Of a stretch of DNA of 64,000 bases, positions 5,579 through 60,248 are shown piece by piece (within the stretch, counting starts at the first letter, position 1; each line of letters starts with the position of its first letter). The notes under the pieces were generated by a model. The model saw only the letters and a program-made list of their open reading frames with translations, was not told the DNA's origin and did no database searches. Origin of the DNA: Escherichia phage ECO103 4-12-1. The position numbers and the translations under genes were made by a program. The stretch lies in sequence record OR844650, one strand, 5' to 3'.

Positions 5579-6691
5579 TTAGAACATTTGTTTGATTGCT
5601 TCGTAACGAAGTTCACAAACAAAATCACGAATTTCTGACGTTTCAAGTTCACCATCTTTGACCATTTGCTGAATATCAGGCAATTCAACATCAGTATAAC
5701 GATCATAAACTTTAATAATTAGATCTTCAAGTTCTAAATCAATTTCTTTTCGCAAAATGAAGTATTCCAAAACTTTATAAAGGAATTCTTCACCTCCGTT
5801 ATTTTTAATATTCATATCCAATAAAATATTACCCATTTCAATAGGGGTCTTTTTACGGAATGTTTTGATATCATCACGGAAACGTTTGATATAATTACTA
5901 AATTTAACATACTTAACTGGAACTTTAATAGCACCGTTAAGTACTGAATCATTATTTACTTCTTCATTTTCAAGAAGAATAGACCACAGAAAATATGGTT
6001 TATATACATCCGTACAGTTCTCTGCAATATAATCAATAAGGTCTAAATTCTTTTTGGTCAAAGATGTATTAAACACCTTTTCGTAATAACCAAATTTACT
6101 TAGCGTCTTAAGGAACTTTGCAGGCTTTTCTTCGGAAAATGCTTTTTCGAATTCCACAAACACACGGTCAGGAACAAGATGATTTAGCTCACCACTATTG
6201 ACCATTCCAATAGCGAGTTCCTCAGTGCTTTCATGGATAGTAAAGTCAGAATAACGAGTAGCAAATCGAGCAAGACGTAACACACGTAATGGATCTTCTT
6301 TAAAATGGTCAGACACATGACGTAGTACCTTGTTCTTGATATCAGCTTTACCACCGTATGGGTCAATGTGAATTTGTAGTACTGGATCATACGAAATTGC
6401 ATTTATTGTTAGGTCACGGCGATACAAATCTTGTTCGAGTGTTACGCCTTTTGTATCCACTTCAAAGCCACCATATCCAGTACCAGTTTTACGCTCAGTA
6501 CGGGCTAATGCGTGTTCATTACCTTCTGGACTTAGATATACTGGGAAATCCTTACCTACTTGCTTATAGCCAATACTTTGCAAGTACTTAAGATCAGATT
6601 CGGATGCACCAACAATGACATAATCTTTGTCTTTTGCACGAAGACCCATTAAACGGTCACGGACGTAACCACCAACCAAATACTTTTTCAT
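5579..6691 (-). CDS. cca: tRNA nucleotidyltransferase (CCA-adding enzyme)
   Basis: N-terminal GGYVRDRLMG and DKDYV motifs, RRDLTINA motif; class II nucleotidyltransferase head domain. Confidence 0.8.
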   Translation of the reverse strand: MKKYLVGGYVRDRLMGLRAKDKDYVIVGASESDLKYLQSIGYKQVGKDFPVYLSPEGNEHALARTERKTGTGYGGFEVDTKGVTLEQDLYRRDLTINAISYDPVLQIHIDPYGGKADIKNKVLRHVSDHFKEDPLRVLRLARFATRYSDFTIHESTEELAIGMVNSGELNHLVPDRVFVEFEKAFSEEKPAKFLKTLSKFGYYEKVFNTSLTKKNLDLIDYIAENCTDVYKPYFLWSILLENEEVNNDSVLNGAIKVPVKYVKFSNYIKRFRDDIKTFRKKTPIEMGNILLDMNIKNNGGEEFLYKVLEYFILRKEIDLELEDLIIKVYDRYTDVELPDIQQMVKDGELETSEIRDFVCELRYEAIKQMF

Positions 6692-6826
6692 GTTATTCCC
6701 CCATCAACCAATCACGTAGACGTTCCCAGAAGCCTTTTGGTTGGTATTCTGGGTATTCATATTCATCAGTGCCTTGCTCGGAAACACCCCAATCTTCTTC
6801 TAACATAGCAATCATAATGCCTCCAA

Positions 6827-7249
6827 TTAAATTAATCTGTCACGTAGACGGTCGTAATATTTTTCGTGTATAGCTAGTATACACTGATATGCAGAATAGT
6901 CAATGCCAAATGTATCATCAATGAACATGTACTGATCAAGTGCTTCTGGCCCATTATCATCAACTGGTAATGTCCCTTCTTTTTTTGACAGGGTGTGCCA
7001 CATCAACTCACTTTCAATATGGTGAGTTGCGTATGTCAATTCAATCTTACTTTTTCTTAGTAAAATTAACAATTCATCATTGTCGTCGAGTGCATTACGA
7101 AATTTAATACGAACAGTACCCTGAAAATTATTAGTGTACATAACACGATGTTGATTATATGTAACTAAACCACGTCTTTCAGTACTGATTTCGTGTTCAG
7201 CAAAGTACTTTAACGTTTCATTAAATTTTGGAATTTTAGTAACGTCCAA
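6827..7249 (-). CDS. hypothetical protein, tandem paralog 1
   Basis: shares C-terminal segment FIDDTFGIDYSAYQCI with the adjacent ORF. Confidence 0.5.
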   Translation of the reverse strand: MDVTKIPKFNETLKYFAEHEISTERRGLVTYNQHRVMYTNNFQGTVRIKFRNALDDNDELLILLRKSKIELTYATHHIESELMWHTLSKKEGTLPVDDNGPEALDQYMFIDDTFGIDYSAYQCILAIHEKYYDRLRDRLI

Positions 7250-7652
7250 TCACATAATCCTCATAAAGTTTGTATACCCTCATTATACTCTGATATGTAT
7301 CAAAGTCAATGCCAAAGGTATCATCAATGAACTGATATTGCAAAAACTCTTCCTCTGTAGCAGCAATAGGAAGAGTCCCGTTTCGTTGTTCTGTTGATTG
7401 AACATCCTCAATATACATCAACACTATACTTTCATCCAGATTTATATCTATCATAAAAACATCTTCACTATAAAATATGTTATATGTACGGATGAAGAGA
7501 TTTCCTGTTCTATCATAACTTGACACGTGTGTTTCATAATACATTTTATCTAAACTAAAGAACAAACCTGTACTATCTGGCTTTTTAGTATTTTTTAATT
7601 TAATTTCGATAGCATCAATCATAGGTTTAATATCAAACTTTTTCATAGACAA
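7236..7652 (-). CDS. hypothetical protein, tandem paralog 2
   Basis: C-terminal QFIDDTFGIDFDTYQSI matches neighbour 6827..7249. Confidence 0.5.
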   Translation of the reverse strand: MSMKKFDIKPMIDAIEIKLKNTKKPDSTGLFFSLDKMYYETHVSSYDRTGNLFIRTYNIFYSEDVFMIDINLDESIVLMYIEDVQSTEQRNGTLPIAATEEEFLQYQFIDDTFGIDFDTYQSIMRVYKLYEDYVIGRY

Positions 7653-7828
7653 ATCACATACTTATTACTATGTGGATCGTAACAATATGAATCATTTACC
7701 TTAATACCAGGCTTAAGTTCAATAGTTGTTCCTGTTTCTGTACTGGGTTCTGCATCACAATAAATCATCACACCAACCCCGACTAGTAAGGATATGATAC
7801 ATATAACTATACATATTGTATATTCCAT
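7643..7828 (-). CDS. small membrane protein
   Basis: 61 aa with hydrophobic N-terminal helix. Confidence 0.35.
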   Translation of the reverse strand: MEYTICIVICIISLLVGVGVMIYCDAEPSTETGTTIELKPGIKVNDSYCYDPHSNKYVICL

Positions 7829-7841
7829 AAATTTATCTCCA

Positions 7842-58342: not shown

Positions 58343-58597
58343 TCAATTATCTAGAACATCCACTATCAAACAAGCTTCAATAACGAAACAATCATCTAAT
58401 TCAAAGAGTAATTGATAGTCATCAGAAAACTTCACTTTAGTAATGTAAGCACTTTCAATTCCACCACTATGATAAGAACTATATAAAATACATTTACCTG
58501 TATATTCCTCACGGATACGACTAAATTCTTCATATAAATGAGTAATAAACGTATCCGCAGTTTTGTTGTAGTATTTTAGGTCACTTACTGTGCTCAT
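58343..58597 (-). CDS. hypothetical protein
   Basis: track ORF. Confidence 0.4.
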   Translation of the reverse strand: MSTVSDLKYYNKTADTFITHLYEEFSRIREEYTGKCILYSSYHSGGIESAYITKVKFSDDYQLLFELDDCFVIEACLIVDVLDN

Positions 58598-58811
58598 TAA
58601 CTTTTCCTACTCCAAATCGCTTGGAGATTTTCACAAGTACAGATTCATCACAACGAATACTAGCAGTATCATTGGATGAACTGTACTTTAATGGGGTCCA
58701 CTGTAATTGAGATTCTTCTAGGAACTTGATACATCTGAAATAATCTTTCAAGGAAAGAAATTTAACTACTGACATATCCTGAACAATACTATGCTGAACT
58801 TCAACTTTCAT
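58581..58811 (-). CDS. hypothetical protein
   Basis: track ORF. Confidence 0.4.
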   Translation of the reverse strand: MKVEVQHSIVQDMSVVKFLSLKDYFRCIKFLEESQLQWTPLKYSSSNDTASIRCDESVLVKISKRFGVGKVNEHSK

Positions 58812-58820
58812 ATGAACTCC

Positions 58821-59078
58821 TTATAGTGGGTCAAATTTATTTTCACGTTTCGATGTATAGCGAGTTACATCATGTATTCTCGGCTTAACACCTTTTGGTT
58901 TCCTTTTCTTCTTGTATTCAGTACTACTACATCCGAAGGTATTCTCGATTCGTTTCTTACTTATCTTCACACCTTTCATTGAGCGTTTGTGCTGTAATTC
59001 ATCGATTTCTTCTTGTATTTTCCTGAACTCAGTCGGAGAAAGGGAACCGTCATTTTTATACTTAGGTTTAGCCATCAC
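58821..59078 (-). CDS. small basic protein
   Basis: Lys/Arg-rich 85 aa. Confidence 0.4.
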   Translation of the reverse strand: MMAKPKYKNDGSLSPTEFRKIQEEIDELQHKRSMKGVKISKKRIENTFGCSSTEYKKKRKPKGVKPRIHDVTRYTSKRENKFDPL

Positions 59079-59105
59079 TTCTCCTTGTGCTTAGGCTAGA
59101 TAGTA

Positions 59106-60248
59106 CTAAAAATCCTTTAGTACAATTTTCATGTATTTTATAAGAGTCTCTTTGTAATCAACTTTCTTATTGTTATACATTGCAAAGGCCAAGCCCTGAC
59201 GATTCAGTTCATTAGTTAAACACTCCTGAACCTTCATTGCGAATTCCTTTCGCTCCAAGTGCTTGTGTTCCTTGACGAAGCTTTCTACTTCATCTTGTAA
59301 TGCATTATAGCACGAAAATACCAATTGTTCCATTCTTAATATCTTTTGCATAGCATATTCATCAGTACTGAACAATTGTTTTAAATCATCACTTGAACCA
59401 TTTAATACTGCTTCATATAAATGAGAATCAATAATAATACTATCTTTTGTAAGATGTAATGAACTGTACCAGTCAGTCTTTATTTTACACATTGTCCCAT
59501 TATTTAGGATGCACACAAAACCCTCAATATCAAGCATTTTATGAACTTCCTCCACGCTTTCACGGAAGGTATTTCGTACCGGAAAAGTGTGATGAATATC
59601 TTTTCCAGTCATATTAGTACTGTACTGTGCAAGACATGGAAACTTATCACGTAGTGCTTTACCACATAGCAACTCACCACTCACACGATGACGAACGTTC
59701 AGTACAAACAGTTGTTCTACCTGATATGGTAATACAATTCGGTACTCTGGGCTTGTATACTCCATATTAACTGTGTAACCTAAACGTTCCGCTTCGTCGA
59801 TGTACTGATACAAATTCTGGTTCTCGTTAATAAGTCGAGTACTGTTAATCGCATGGTCAGAATACAATGCAGTATGTGATTTACAACGAATCTCACCATC
59901 ATTATCACGGTAAGTACTGATAATCGAACCATCCAACTTAGGCATCACTACCGCAATGTCATCGCATGTGGTGTTAGCAGGGAACATTGTAGCAGGATTC
60001 TCGTAAGCATTGAAGAACTTTTTCATTGTACGTGCTGCACAACGTATCATTTCACCTTCTTCATCAATTTCCCACATAGAGCCACGGGTTTCCAACGCAT
60101 TTGGTTGCATGAAATCAGTGTATGATGCTAGACGATAACTGAATACACGATACGTGCCACCAGCAGGACTTTTATGATCCACATAAAAGAATGCATCGTT
60201 TGTATTACATAAGTGCATTAAATCTTCATATATTTGCAAAAGGGTCAT
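59106..60248 (-). CDS. rnlA: RNA ligase 1 (T4 Rnl1/gp63-like)
   Basis: adenylation motif KLDG; GGTYRVFSYRLASYTDF..PNALETRGSMWEID aligns with T4 Rnl1; ATG confirmed. Confidence 0.85.
   Translation of the reverse strand: MTLLQIYEDLMHLCNTNDAFFYVDHKSPAGGTYRVFSYRLASYTDFMQPNALETRGSMWEIDEEGEMIRCAARTMKKFFNAYENPATMFPANTTCDDIAVVMPKLDGSIISTYRDNDGEIRCKSHTALYSDHAINSTRLINENQNLYQYIDEAERLGYTVNMEYTSPEYRIVLPYQVEQLFVLNVRHRVSGELLCGKALRDKFPCLAQYSTNMTGKDIHHTFPVRNTFRESVEEVHKMLDIEGFVCILNNGTMCKIKTDWYSSLHLTKDSIIIDSHLYEAVLNGSSDDLKQLFSTDEYAMQKILRMEQLVFSCYNALQDEVESFVKEHKHLERKEFAMKVQECLTNELNRQGLAFAMYNNKKVDYKETLIKYMKIVLKDF

Follow-up and report, generated by a model that had tools for sequence, protein, structure and literature searches.

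Dispersed genes with predicted roles in RNA-end processing and tRNA maintenance in a genome stretch of the jumbo coliphage ECO103 4-12-1

A stretch of 64,000 nucleotides from Escherichia phage ECO103 4-12-1 (sequence record OR844650; the whole stretch is referred to as the window) was analyzed for genes acting on RNA ends and on tRNA. With a probability of about 0.72, we read these genes as a dispersed set for RNA-end processing and tRNA maintenance in a group 2.2 Asteriusvirus, arranged in three clusters plus singletons (Table 1). The first cluster holds a T4-type polynucleotide kinase/phosphatase (Pnkp) and RNA ligase 1 (Rnl1), the second a sirtuin (Sir2), a Nudix hydrolase, a cREC protein, a conserved open reading frame (ORF) and a PIN-PhoH protein, and the third, a syntenic block, combines a 2H-SAK-type phosphoesterase with a lysozyme, a ribosome hibernation factor, a CCA-adding enzyme, a Nudix hydrolase and a glutaredoxin. 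The genes for RlaP and a PTH2-like protein stand as singletons. Family memberships, motifs, the 2H fold, the gene order with its conservation, and the lack of CCA in four tRNA genes are direct observations, and the evidence for them is given below.

The original prediction, made from the letters of the window, had listed five of these genes (Pnkp, Rnl1, the CCA-adding enzyme, PIN-PhoH and a possible 2H phosphoesterase) as an RNA-repair toolkit. All five ORFs exist on the minus strand at exactly the predicted positions, and their family assignments are supported by Pfam and PHROGs. The list was incomplete, lacking RlaP, cREC, Sir2, the Nudt16-like Nudix hydrolase and PTH2. The gene set is an ordinary one, described before by comparative genomics (Iyer et al. 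2021, 2022). The published scheme for jumbo phages comprises ATP-grasp RNA ligases, PNK-HAD, 2H, cRec, RlaP, the CCA-adding enzyme, PTH2 and PIN-PhoH (Iyer et al. 2021, PMC7824862, section 3.4.9), and the same survey notes 2H enzymes in group 2.2 phages and calls the role of PIN-PhoH enigmatic. Pnkp, Rnl1, the CCA enzyme and PhoH are annotated as such in the phages G17, 121Q, PBECO4 and others.

Table 1. Positions of the genes and the terminator-like element in the window, in order along the sequence
Feature	Length (amino acids)	Coordinates	Strand	Evidence or remark
Probable Macro-domain protein	158	3762..4238	minus	Pfam Macro 16 bits (below threshold); NCBIfam DarG macrodomain 3.9e-8
Class II tRNA nucleotidyltransferase, CCA-adding type, without HD domain	370	5579..6691	minus	
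Standalone 2H phosphoesterase, 2H-SAK type	136	9735..10145	minus	H57-V-S59 (9969-9977), H127-I-T129 (9759-9767)
RlaP, RNA-ligase-associated Pol-beta nucleotidyltransferase	410	19432..20664	minus	PF10127 6e-16
PIN-PhoH (PhoH2-like RNase plus RNA-helicase-type ATPase), last gene of the Sir2 cluster	479	38516..39955	minus	PIN_4 7e-20, PhoH 7e-44
Conserved ORF with hydrophobic N-terminal segment	100	40016..40318	minus	No Pfam match
cREC (cyclic-phosphate-processing receiver-like)	106	40315..40635	minus	PF20274 1.5e-22, 80.5 bits versus cutoff 27
Nudt16-like Nudix hydrolase	183	40645..41196	minus	PF22327 2e-18
Sir2-family protein, first gene of the Sir2 cluster	252	41193..41951	minus	PF02146 4e-20; GAGLS and HG motifs
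PTH2-type peptidyl-tRNA hydrolase-like protein	139	51988..52407	minus	PF01981 2e-5, 25.2 bits versus cutoff 23
Intrinsic-terminator-like hairpin		57047..57073	minus	11-pair stem and T-run, directly after the Pnkp stop codon
Pnkp, T4-type polynucleotide 5'-kinase/3'-phosphatase	310	57077..58009	minus	1LTQ match
Four small conserved ORFs between Rnl1 and Pnkp	104, 84, 76, 85	58022..59078	minus	
Rnl1/RnlA, T4-type RNA ligase 1	380	59106..60248	minus	Adenylyltransferase and Rnl1-specific C-terminal domain

The T4-type Pnkp-Rnl1 pair and the sirtuin-centred cluster

Rnl1 aligns over its full length with the T4 Rnl1 structures 2C5U/5TT6 (E = 1e-56), lies above the cutoff of the NCBIfam T4 RnlA equivalog TIGR02308 (293.2 versus 242.25 bits) and matches the Pfam models RNA_lig_T4_1 (1e-15) and T4_Rnl1_C (PF20819, 6.6e-17, residues 268-379). 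It conserves K104-L-D-G of motif I, with E163, E242-G243 and K255/K257 covering motifs III, IV and V, together with R55, K77 and F79. Pnkp aligns end to end with T4 Pnkp (E = 4e-40) and carries an AAA_33 kinase and an HAD_PNKP domain (PF25109, 9e-44). The kinase domain keeps the P-loop GLPGCGKT at residues 9-16 as well as D36 and R39, the equivalents of T4 D35 and R38, and the phosphatase domain keeps DIDGT (180-184), R191, S227, R229, D262, K266 and D285-D286, taking as reference the T4 residues D165/D167, R176, S211, R213, D254, K258, D277 and D278. A single kinase position is ambiguous, Q141 being aligned to T4 R126 beside a 15-residue insertion that disturbs the alignment; arginines follow one and three positions later. 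Both proteins had been named correctly, and the catalytic residues of Pnkp and Rnl1 are present on alignment, apart from this ambiguity and from His125 of Rnl1, which occupies the position of T4 K119.

The two genes lie 1.1 kb apart on the same strand, separated by the four small ORFs, three of which match PHROGs of unknown function and one of which has no match. Since no convincing terminator was found in the Rnl1-Pnkp interval before the hairpin that follows Pnkp, the ligase, the four small ORFs and Pnkp probably form one transcription unit; a terminator is annotated in phage G17 at the position equivalent to that hairpin. The T4 counterparts, pseT Pnkp and gene 63 Rnl1 of the anti-PrrC pathway, share the two-domain Pnkp, the two-domain Rnl1 and the conserved motifs, and in T4, too, the pair sits close together on one strand. 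The window proteins differ in being only ~40% identical to those of T4, in the kinase-domain insertion of Pnkp and the histidine of Rnl1, and in the small ORFs of unknown function placed between the two genes.

T4 Pnkp and Rnl1 repair tRNA cleaved by anticodon nuclease and act in the same pathway (PMC7824862, PMC3592404), and homology supports a heal-and-seal role of the same type for the window pair. A host anticodon nuclease would cut tRNA to leave 2',3'-cyclic-phosphate and 5'-OH ends, the phosphatase domain of Pnkp would take off the cyclic phosphate, its kinase domain would add a phosphate to the 5' end, and Rnl1 would then rejoin the anticodon loop. Here, as for every gene discussed below, enzymatic activities, substrates and the defence systems countered are predictions from homology and gene context.

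The second cluster is tightly packed: Sir2 and Nudix overlap by 4 nucleotides, Nudix and cREC are separated by 9, cREC overlaps the 100-residue ORF by 4, and 60 nucleotides separate that ORF from PIN-PhoH. The PIN-PhoH protein carries D7, E34-E35/D37, D120-D121 and D138 as PIN acidic residues, assigned by motif and not by structural alignment, in addition to a Walker A motif (GSAGTGKT, 295-302) and VDE at 400-402 as Walker B, and it matches PDB entry 3B85 at E = 2e-22. Its score lies far below the cutoff of the NCBIfam PhoH2 equivalog NF053827 (152 versus 680 bits). It shares the PIN and PhoH architecture, the PIN acidic residues and the Walker A/B motifs with mycobacterial PhoH2, from which it differs in its setting, a phage Sir2-Nudix-cREC cluster instead of a toxin-antitoxin context. 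The family had thus been recognized correctly, whereas its inclusion as a repair enzyme did not hold: it is an RNase-helicase by family, housed in the sirtuin cluster.

The gene order of the cluster is conserved in Erwinia phage Kaldavass, with identities of 41% (Sir2), 50% (Nudix), 65% (cREC), 46% (100-residue ORF, whose counterpart is annotated as membrane protein) and 68% (PIN-PhoH). In Kaldavass, Nudix and cREC are fused as the N- and C-terminal halves of one polypeptide, whereas in the window they are separate genes. Such clustering is not universal among phage sirtuins, given that Vibrio phage D525 has a 31% identical Sir2 homolog next to which neither a Nudix nor a PhoH gene is annotated. 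A sirtuin-centred neighbourhood of this kind has been predicted to perform NAD+-utilising RNA repair, the sirtuin acting like KptA/Tpt1, by NAD+-dependent removal of cyclic or 2'-phosphates followed by clearance of ADP-ribose by-products (Iyer et al. 2022, PMC9503650, section 3.7.3). By its gene content and order, the window cluster is configuration 1 (Serratia phage BF type) of that neighbourhood: the contiguous, co-directional sirtuin, Nudix, cREC and PIN endoRNase genes are common to both, the differences being that the window has no 2H gene adjacent to the cluster and that its PIN domain is fused to PhoH. The window cluster would, accordingly with that scheme, use NAD+ to remove cyclic or 2'-phosphates and then clear the ADP-ribose by-products, and PIN-PhoH would act as an RNA-handling helicase-nuclease.

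A different function for this cluster, as a counter-signalling or NAD+/ADP-ribose module directed at immune signals or at NAD+ depletion, or as a means of degrading host RNA through PIN-PhoH, is in our view fairly unlikely. It is kept alive by the gene neighbourhood in Kaldavass, where an Acb1-like 2H gene (3805-4251) and a nicotinamide phosphoribosyltransferase gene (411-1925; positions in the retrieved locus) lie just upstream of the cluster. The cluster-linked 2H protein of Kaldavass matches T4 Acb1 at E = 7e-6 and scores 8 bits against the family of the window's 2H protein. Moreover, Sir2, Nudix and cREC could plausibly act on soluble NAD+ or ADP-ribose derivatives (PMC9503650), and PIN-PhoH proteins are helicase-coupled RNases whose phage role was described as enigmatic (Iyer et al. 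2021, PMC7824862). Against these readings, cREC has been reported only in RNA-repair and cyclic-phosphate contexts, and other configurations of the sirtuin clade are tied to a T4-like tRNA ligase and HAD end-phosphatases (PMC9503650). The Acb1-like gene itself occurs widely in RaK2-like jumbo phages, but among Escherichia records no more than two contain a match, and it is therefore absent from Asteriusviruses.

A standalone 2H phosphoesterase

The original prediction had noticed two H-x-(S/T)-x motifs in a small protein and proposed a 2H phosphoesterase. The motifs are HVSI (residue 57) and HITV (residue 127), and the pair exceeds chance, because two such motifs occur in only 2 of the 126 minus-strand window ORFs of at least 60 residues and because no column other than those of H57 and H127 is invariant among 100 family members reaching down to 24% identity, with T129 and G63 nearly invariant in the same alignment. 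The match to the Pfam 2H-SAK model PF22547 reaches 25.8 bits against a cutoff of 27 and covers only the part of the model with the C-terminal motif; precomputed matches to this model exist for 24 of 29 homologs, one of which UniRef names a Swiss Army Knife 2H phosphoesterase domain protein. In the G17 record and in two homologs with NCBI names, the protein is called hypothetical. An exhaustive profile search returned 1,089 clusters (50% identity), most of which are standalone proteins 130-170 residues long. An AlphaFold model built from an alignment (pLDDT 92.8, pTM 0.85) carries the two motifs on an internally duplicated fold and gave top structural matches exclusively within the 2H superfamily; it replaced a single-sequence model of pLDDT 43 that was unusable. 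By sequence, the family profile matched no entry in the PDB. The standalone 2H-SAK-type proteins make up a large family in phages, for which sequence comparison detects no solved structure and, as far as we found, no biochemistry is published. Compared with the 2H-SAK domain of PF22547, the two HxS/T motifs and the 2H fold are common, and the window protein is a minimal standalone version of 136 residues instead of forming part of a larger, multidomain repair protein. The names SAK and RlaP reportedly go back to Burroughs and Aravind in 2016.

Nine genomic contexts of the 2H family were sampled, of which two were too short to be informative and one was unrelated to RNA. Elsewhere, one member is fused to a YqeY domain, a domain related to the tRNA-binding tail of GatB, and others lie immediately downstream of RlaP, two genes from a YqeY gene, or adjoining a cREC gene. 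There is also a metagenomic relative whose 2H protein is 49% identical and whose block of 2H, a further gene, lysozyme, HPF, CCA, Nudix, glutaredoxin, YqeY and, further on, PTH2 is syntenic with the window. Directly upstream of its 2H gene, this relative encodes an Rnl2-type RNA ligase (PF09414/PHA02142), an HAD hydrolase, a PRTase_3 and a DUF2828/DUF7788 protein (4944-9814 of the retrieved locus), none of which is at the equivalent place in the window. The hibernation factor of the window block is an HPF/S30AE protein (PF02482, 3e-10; 8291-8623, minus strand) between the tail lysozyme and the CCA enzyme. Because the family contexts include YqeY, RlaP, cREC, RNA ligase, CCA and PTH2 genes, a tRNA or RNA-repair role is indicated, and the 2H protein is most likely an RNA 2',3'-cyclic phosphodiesterase that would open such phosphates on tRNA.

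The same fold is used by phage anti-CBASS Acb1 enzymes, and a kinship with them had been raised along with the phosphoesterase assignment. The assignment stood, on the invariant histidine pair and the model, whereas the kinship was rejected: T4 Acb1 (gp57B) aligns to the 2H family profile with an hhalign probability of 3.7%, there being no detectable sequence relationship to T4 gp57B or FBB1 Acb1 beyond the superfamily fold, and the genomic associations of the two differ. Furthermore, Yersinia phage fHe-Yen9-04 and Xanthomonas phage XbC2 each carry both a 2H homolog and a distinct Acb1-like protein of 148 residues. It is improbable that the window protein is an Acb1-type enzyme destroying the cyclic oligonucleotide signals of the host. 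A search of the window for a second 2H or Acb1 homolog found none.

A more ambitious extension of the tRNA-directed reading would have the 2H-SAK family as a whole work as tRNA-directed cyclic phosphodiesterases with a YqeY-type partner, and together with the Sir2 cluster form a second, NAD+-dependent route of tRNA repair. The sirtuin would remove the 2'-phosphate as Tpt1/KptA does, parallel to the Pnkp/Rnl1 pathway. We hold this extension to be speculative and distinctly unlikely.

The CCA-type enzyme, the singletons and the coherence of the set

The CCA-type nucleotidyltransferase call was also borne out. The enzyme has a PolyA_pol head (PF01743, 4e-18) and a PolyA_pol_RNAbd neck domain (PF12627), both above the Pfam cutoffs, matches the tRNA nucleotidyltransferase group phrog_2244 at 1e-115 and carries the class II head motifs GGYVRD (7-12), DKD (21-23), RRD (91-93) and EDPLR (132-136). 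Its nearest solved relatives are CCA- and A-adding enzymes (PDB 3H37, 4.5e-21), which as best matches rank ahead of PcnB, although no equivalog cutoff is reached and the enzyme may add CCA, CC or A. The four head motifs and the neck domain are common to bacterial class II enzymes (E. coli Cca and those of T. maritima and Bacillus), whereas the window enzyme lacks the HD phosphohydrolase domain that E. coli Cca has at its C-terminus, a Pfam scan of the protein having returned no HD match. Given this lack, and given that the best NCBIfam match, the E. coli-type NF008137, covers only positions 1-207 of 409, the GenBank label "multifunctional CCA protein" is overstated.

As predicted, the window holds no tRNA genes (none with ARAGORN, and no RNA family with Rfam) and the phage tRNAs lie elsewhere: the near-identical phage Sharanji has seven, for Thr, Asn, Met, Arg, Gly and twice Ser, ~160 kb away. 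Four of the seven (Thr, Asn, Ser-ACU and Gly) have no encoded CCA at the 3' end, and Met, Arg and Ser-UGA have it. For this reason the simplest role for the CCA enzyme would be the maturation of the phage's own tRNAs, which displaces its proposed use in counter-defence as the simpler account. Repair of damaged CCA ends has been suggested for phage CCA enzymes (Iyer et al. 2021, PMC7824862) and is compatible with maturation but not required; the enzyme would finish the 3' ends of phage tRNAs and could also rebuild damaged ones. Some peculiarities of the Sharanji tRNAs were seen as well (tRNA cluster at 9712-13954 of the retrieved locus). The four CCA-less tRNAs all end in the discriminator followed by C and an A-rich tail, one tRNA-Ser has ACU (A34), an unusual anticodon, and the "tRNA-Met" reaches 90 nucleotides and has a long variable arm.

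The CCA enzyme, possibly joined by PTH2 and the hibernation factor, may simply support translation by making the phage tRNAs functional and play no part in counter-defence; we consider the chances of this to be about even. The CCA-less tRNAs speak for it, as do the missing HD phosphohydrolase domain, which is the "repair" domain in E. coli Cca, and the place of the gene beside HPF, Nudix and glutaredoxin genes in a conserved block, and not with the ligases. E. coli Cca, though, could mature phage tRNAs, as it does for T4. A phage copy therefore suggests selection for independence from the host or for the handling of damaged ends, and the two roles are in any case mutually compatible.

The two singletons extend the set. 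RlaP matches PF10127 with 59.2 bits against a cutoff of 23 and phrog_388 at 2e-76, and has a GS-x11-DTD motif (GSQAYGTSTPESDTD) at residues 16-30. It is the nucleotidyltransferase that most often accompanies phage RNA ligases (Iyer et al. 2021, PMC7824862) and would restore nucleotides lost at a break before ligation. The PTH2-like protein, for which the NCBIfam Pth2 match is weak (20.5 bits), would release peptides from broken peptidyl-tRNA.

Whether these genes cooperate was weighed against the alternative that no functional toolkit exists and that they are independent accessory genes falling within 55 kb of a 350-kb genome rich in nucleic-acid enzymes, which we regard as rather unlikely. 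The idea of one toolkit unit was not upheld in its literal form, the genes forming three separate clusters and singletons spread over 55 kb among ~125 other co-directional genes. The five genes originally listed are 1 to 30 kb apart with many predicted terminators among the interspersed genes, and the region also encodes a DNA ligase, NrdDG, dCMP deaminases, ClpP and phosphatases. On the other side, Rnl1 and Pnkp are close neighbors on one probable transcript and the T4 pair acts in one pathway, the conservation of the closely spaced Sir2 cluster extends down to 41% identity, and RNA ligases, PNK-HAD, RlaP, 2H and CCA are co-distributed across jumbo phages (PMC7824862). A dispersed set of RNA-end-processing and tRNA-maintenance genes is thus the reading we prefer, and several observations count against it. 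The co-function of the three clusters is assumed. RlaP is 38 kb from Rnl1, so that it does not lie beside an RNA ligase, and a scan of the neighbours of the Sir2 cluster in the window found no 2H gene, the only one being ~30 kb away; both separations are unlike the adjacent arrangements seen elsewhere. The 2H context that is unrelated to RNA has GGACT and DnaB genes as neighbours. T4 Pnkp removes 2',3'-cyclic phosphate unaided (PMC3592404), and because it clears cyclic phosphates alone, a T4-type pathway has no need for 2H or cREC. The evidence on tRNA genes comes from Sharanji and not from the genome to which the window belongs. Finally, His125 is the sole deviation among the Rnl1 catalytic positions, at a residue (T4 K119) that is reportedly essential in T4 according to an alanine scan.

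As a discovery, the set adds little: more than 30 public genomes contain these genes, and comparative genomics has already yielded the published scheme. It does bring together, in one jumbo coliphage, much machinery that would protect translation: a T4-type pair, a predicted NAD+-dependent cluster, a 2H protein and a peptidyl-tRNA hydrolase, along with two template-independent nucleotidyltransferases. As these phages grow on E. coli K-12, the predicted 2H-SAK, cREC, RNA-repair sirtuin, RlaP and phage PIN-PhoH proteins become available in a tractable system.

Genomic setting and further genes

The window is a stretch of the genome of an Asteriusvirus jumbo coliphage of ~350 kb, a membership that follows from near-identity to G17, Sharanji, 121Q, slurp01 and their kin. 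Escherichia phages vB_EcoM_G17 and Sharanji match positions 56500-60600 at 99.7% identity, and 121Q, slurp01, PBECO4 and ~30 other records do so at 97-99%; over positions 1-25000, the identity to SP27, phAPEC6 and slurp01 is 98-99%. All annotated genes are on the minus strand, except for one small plus-strand gene in the G17 annotation, and the window is part of a long co-directional array of non-structural genes. The annotations of G17 and Sharanji include a split Pol III alpha subunit, ClpP, TelA and IF3, which are listed for group 2.2 jumbo phages (Iyer et al. 2021), and we infer that the phage belongs to this group. Over positions 1-25000, collinearity in a single piece was seen only with slurp01. 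A tail-fibre segment of ~3.4 kb present in G17 and several relatives is missing from the window (~17400-19400, versus 15929-19347 of the comparison locus), which is a mosaic indel in the host-range region.

The probable Macro-domain protein has the DarG macrodomain as its best NCBIfam match, below threshold, and carries the CDD domain Macro_Poa1p_like in the G17 record. It may process ADP-ribose derivatives, and a link to the RNA-repair set is tentative; it could instead be a phage counter to DNA ADP-ribosylation by DarT and not a phosphatase for RNA-repair by-products. The label tRNA-specific adenosine deaminase, given in slurp01 and Sharanji to the gene at 44592-45083 (minus strand), was rejected, because the protein scores as a deaminase of the dCMP/ComEB type (PF00383, 5e-22) with only a marginal TadA match. 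The G17 annotation has a second dCMP deaminase-like gene at about window positions 33107-33475.

WGR domains are normally the nucleic-acid-break-sensing module of PARP-like proteins. The window encodes one in a protein of 323 residues (35279-36250, minus strand), where it occupies only residues 256-322, the N-terminal 250 residues having no family assignment. Pfam scans of 16 further ORFs (four downstream of RlaP, the flanks of the Sir2 cluster and the CCA-HPF interval) gave no significant match. Around the PTH2-like gene, a T4-like DNA ligase is found at 49359-50777, and a conserved protein of 400 residues (50789-51991, minus strand; phrog_14061, no Pfam match) lies between the two. Calcineurin-like metallophosphoesterases at 48548-49351 and 52911-53669 (minus strand; PF00149, 4e-13 and 6e-11) flank this DNA ligase/PTH2 region, and enzymes of this family sometimes serve as RNA-end phosphatases (Iyer et al.). 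The G17 annotation places a ClpP protease homolog at the equivalent of window positions 46986-47681 (minus strand), and a weakly ClpP-like protein (E = 0.004) with a hydrophobic N-terminus is encoded at 43098-43721 on the same strand.

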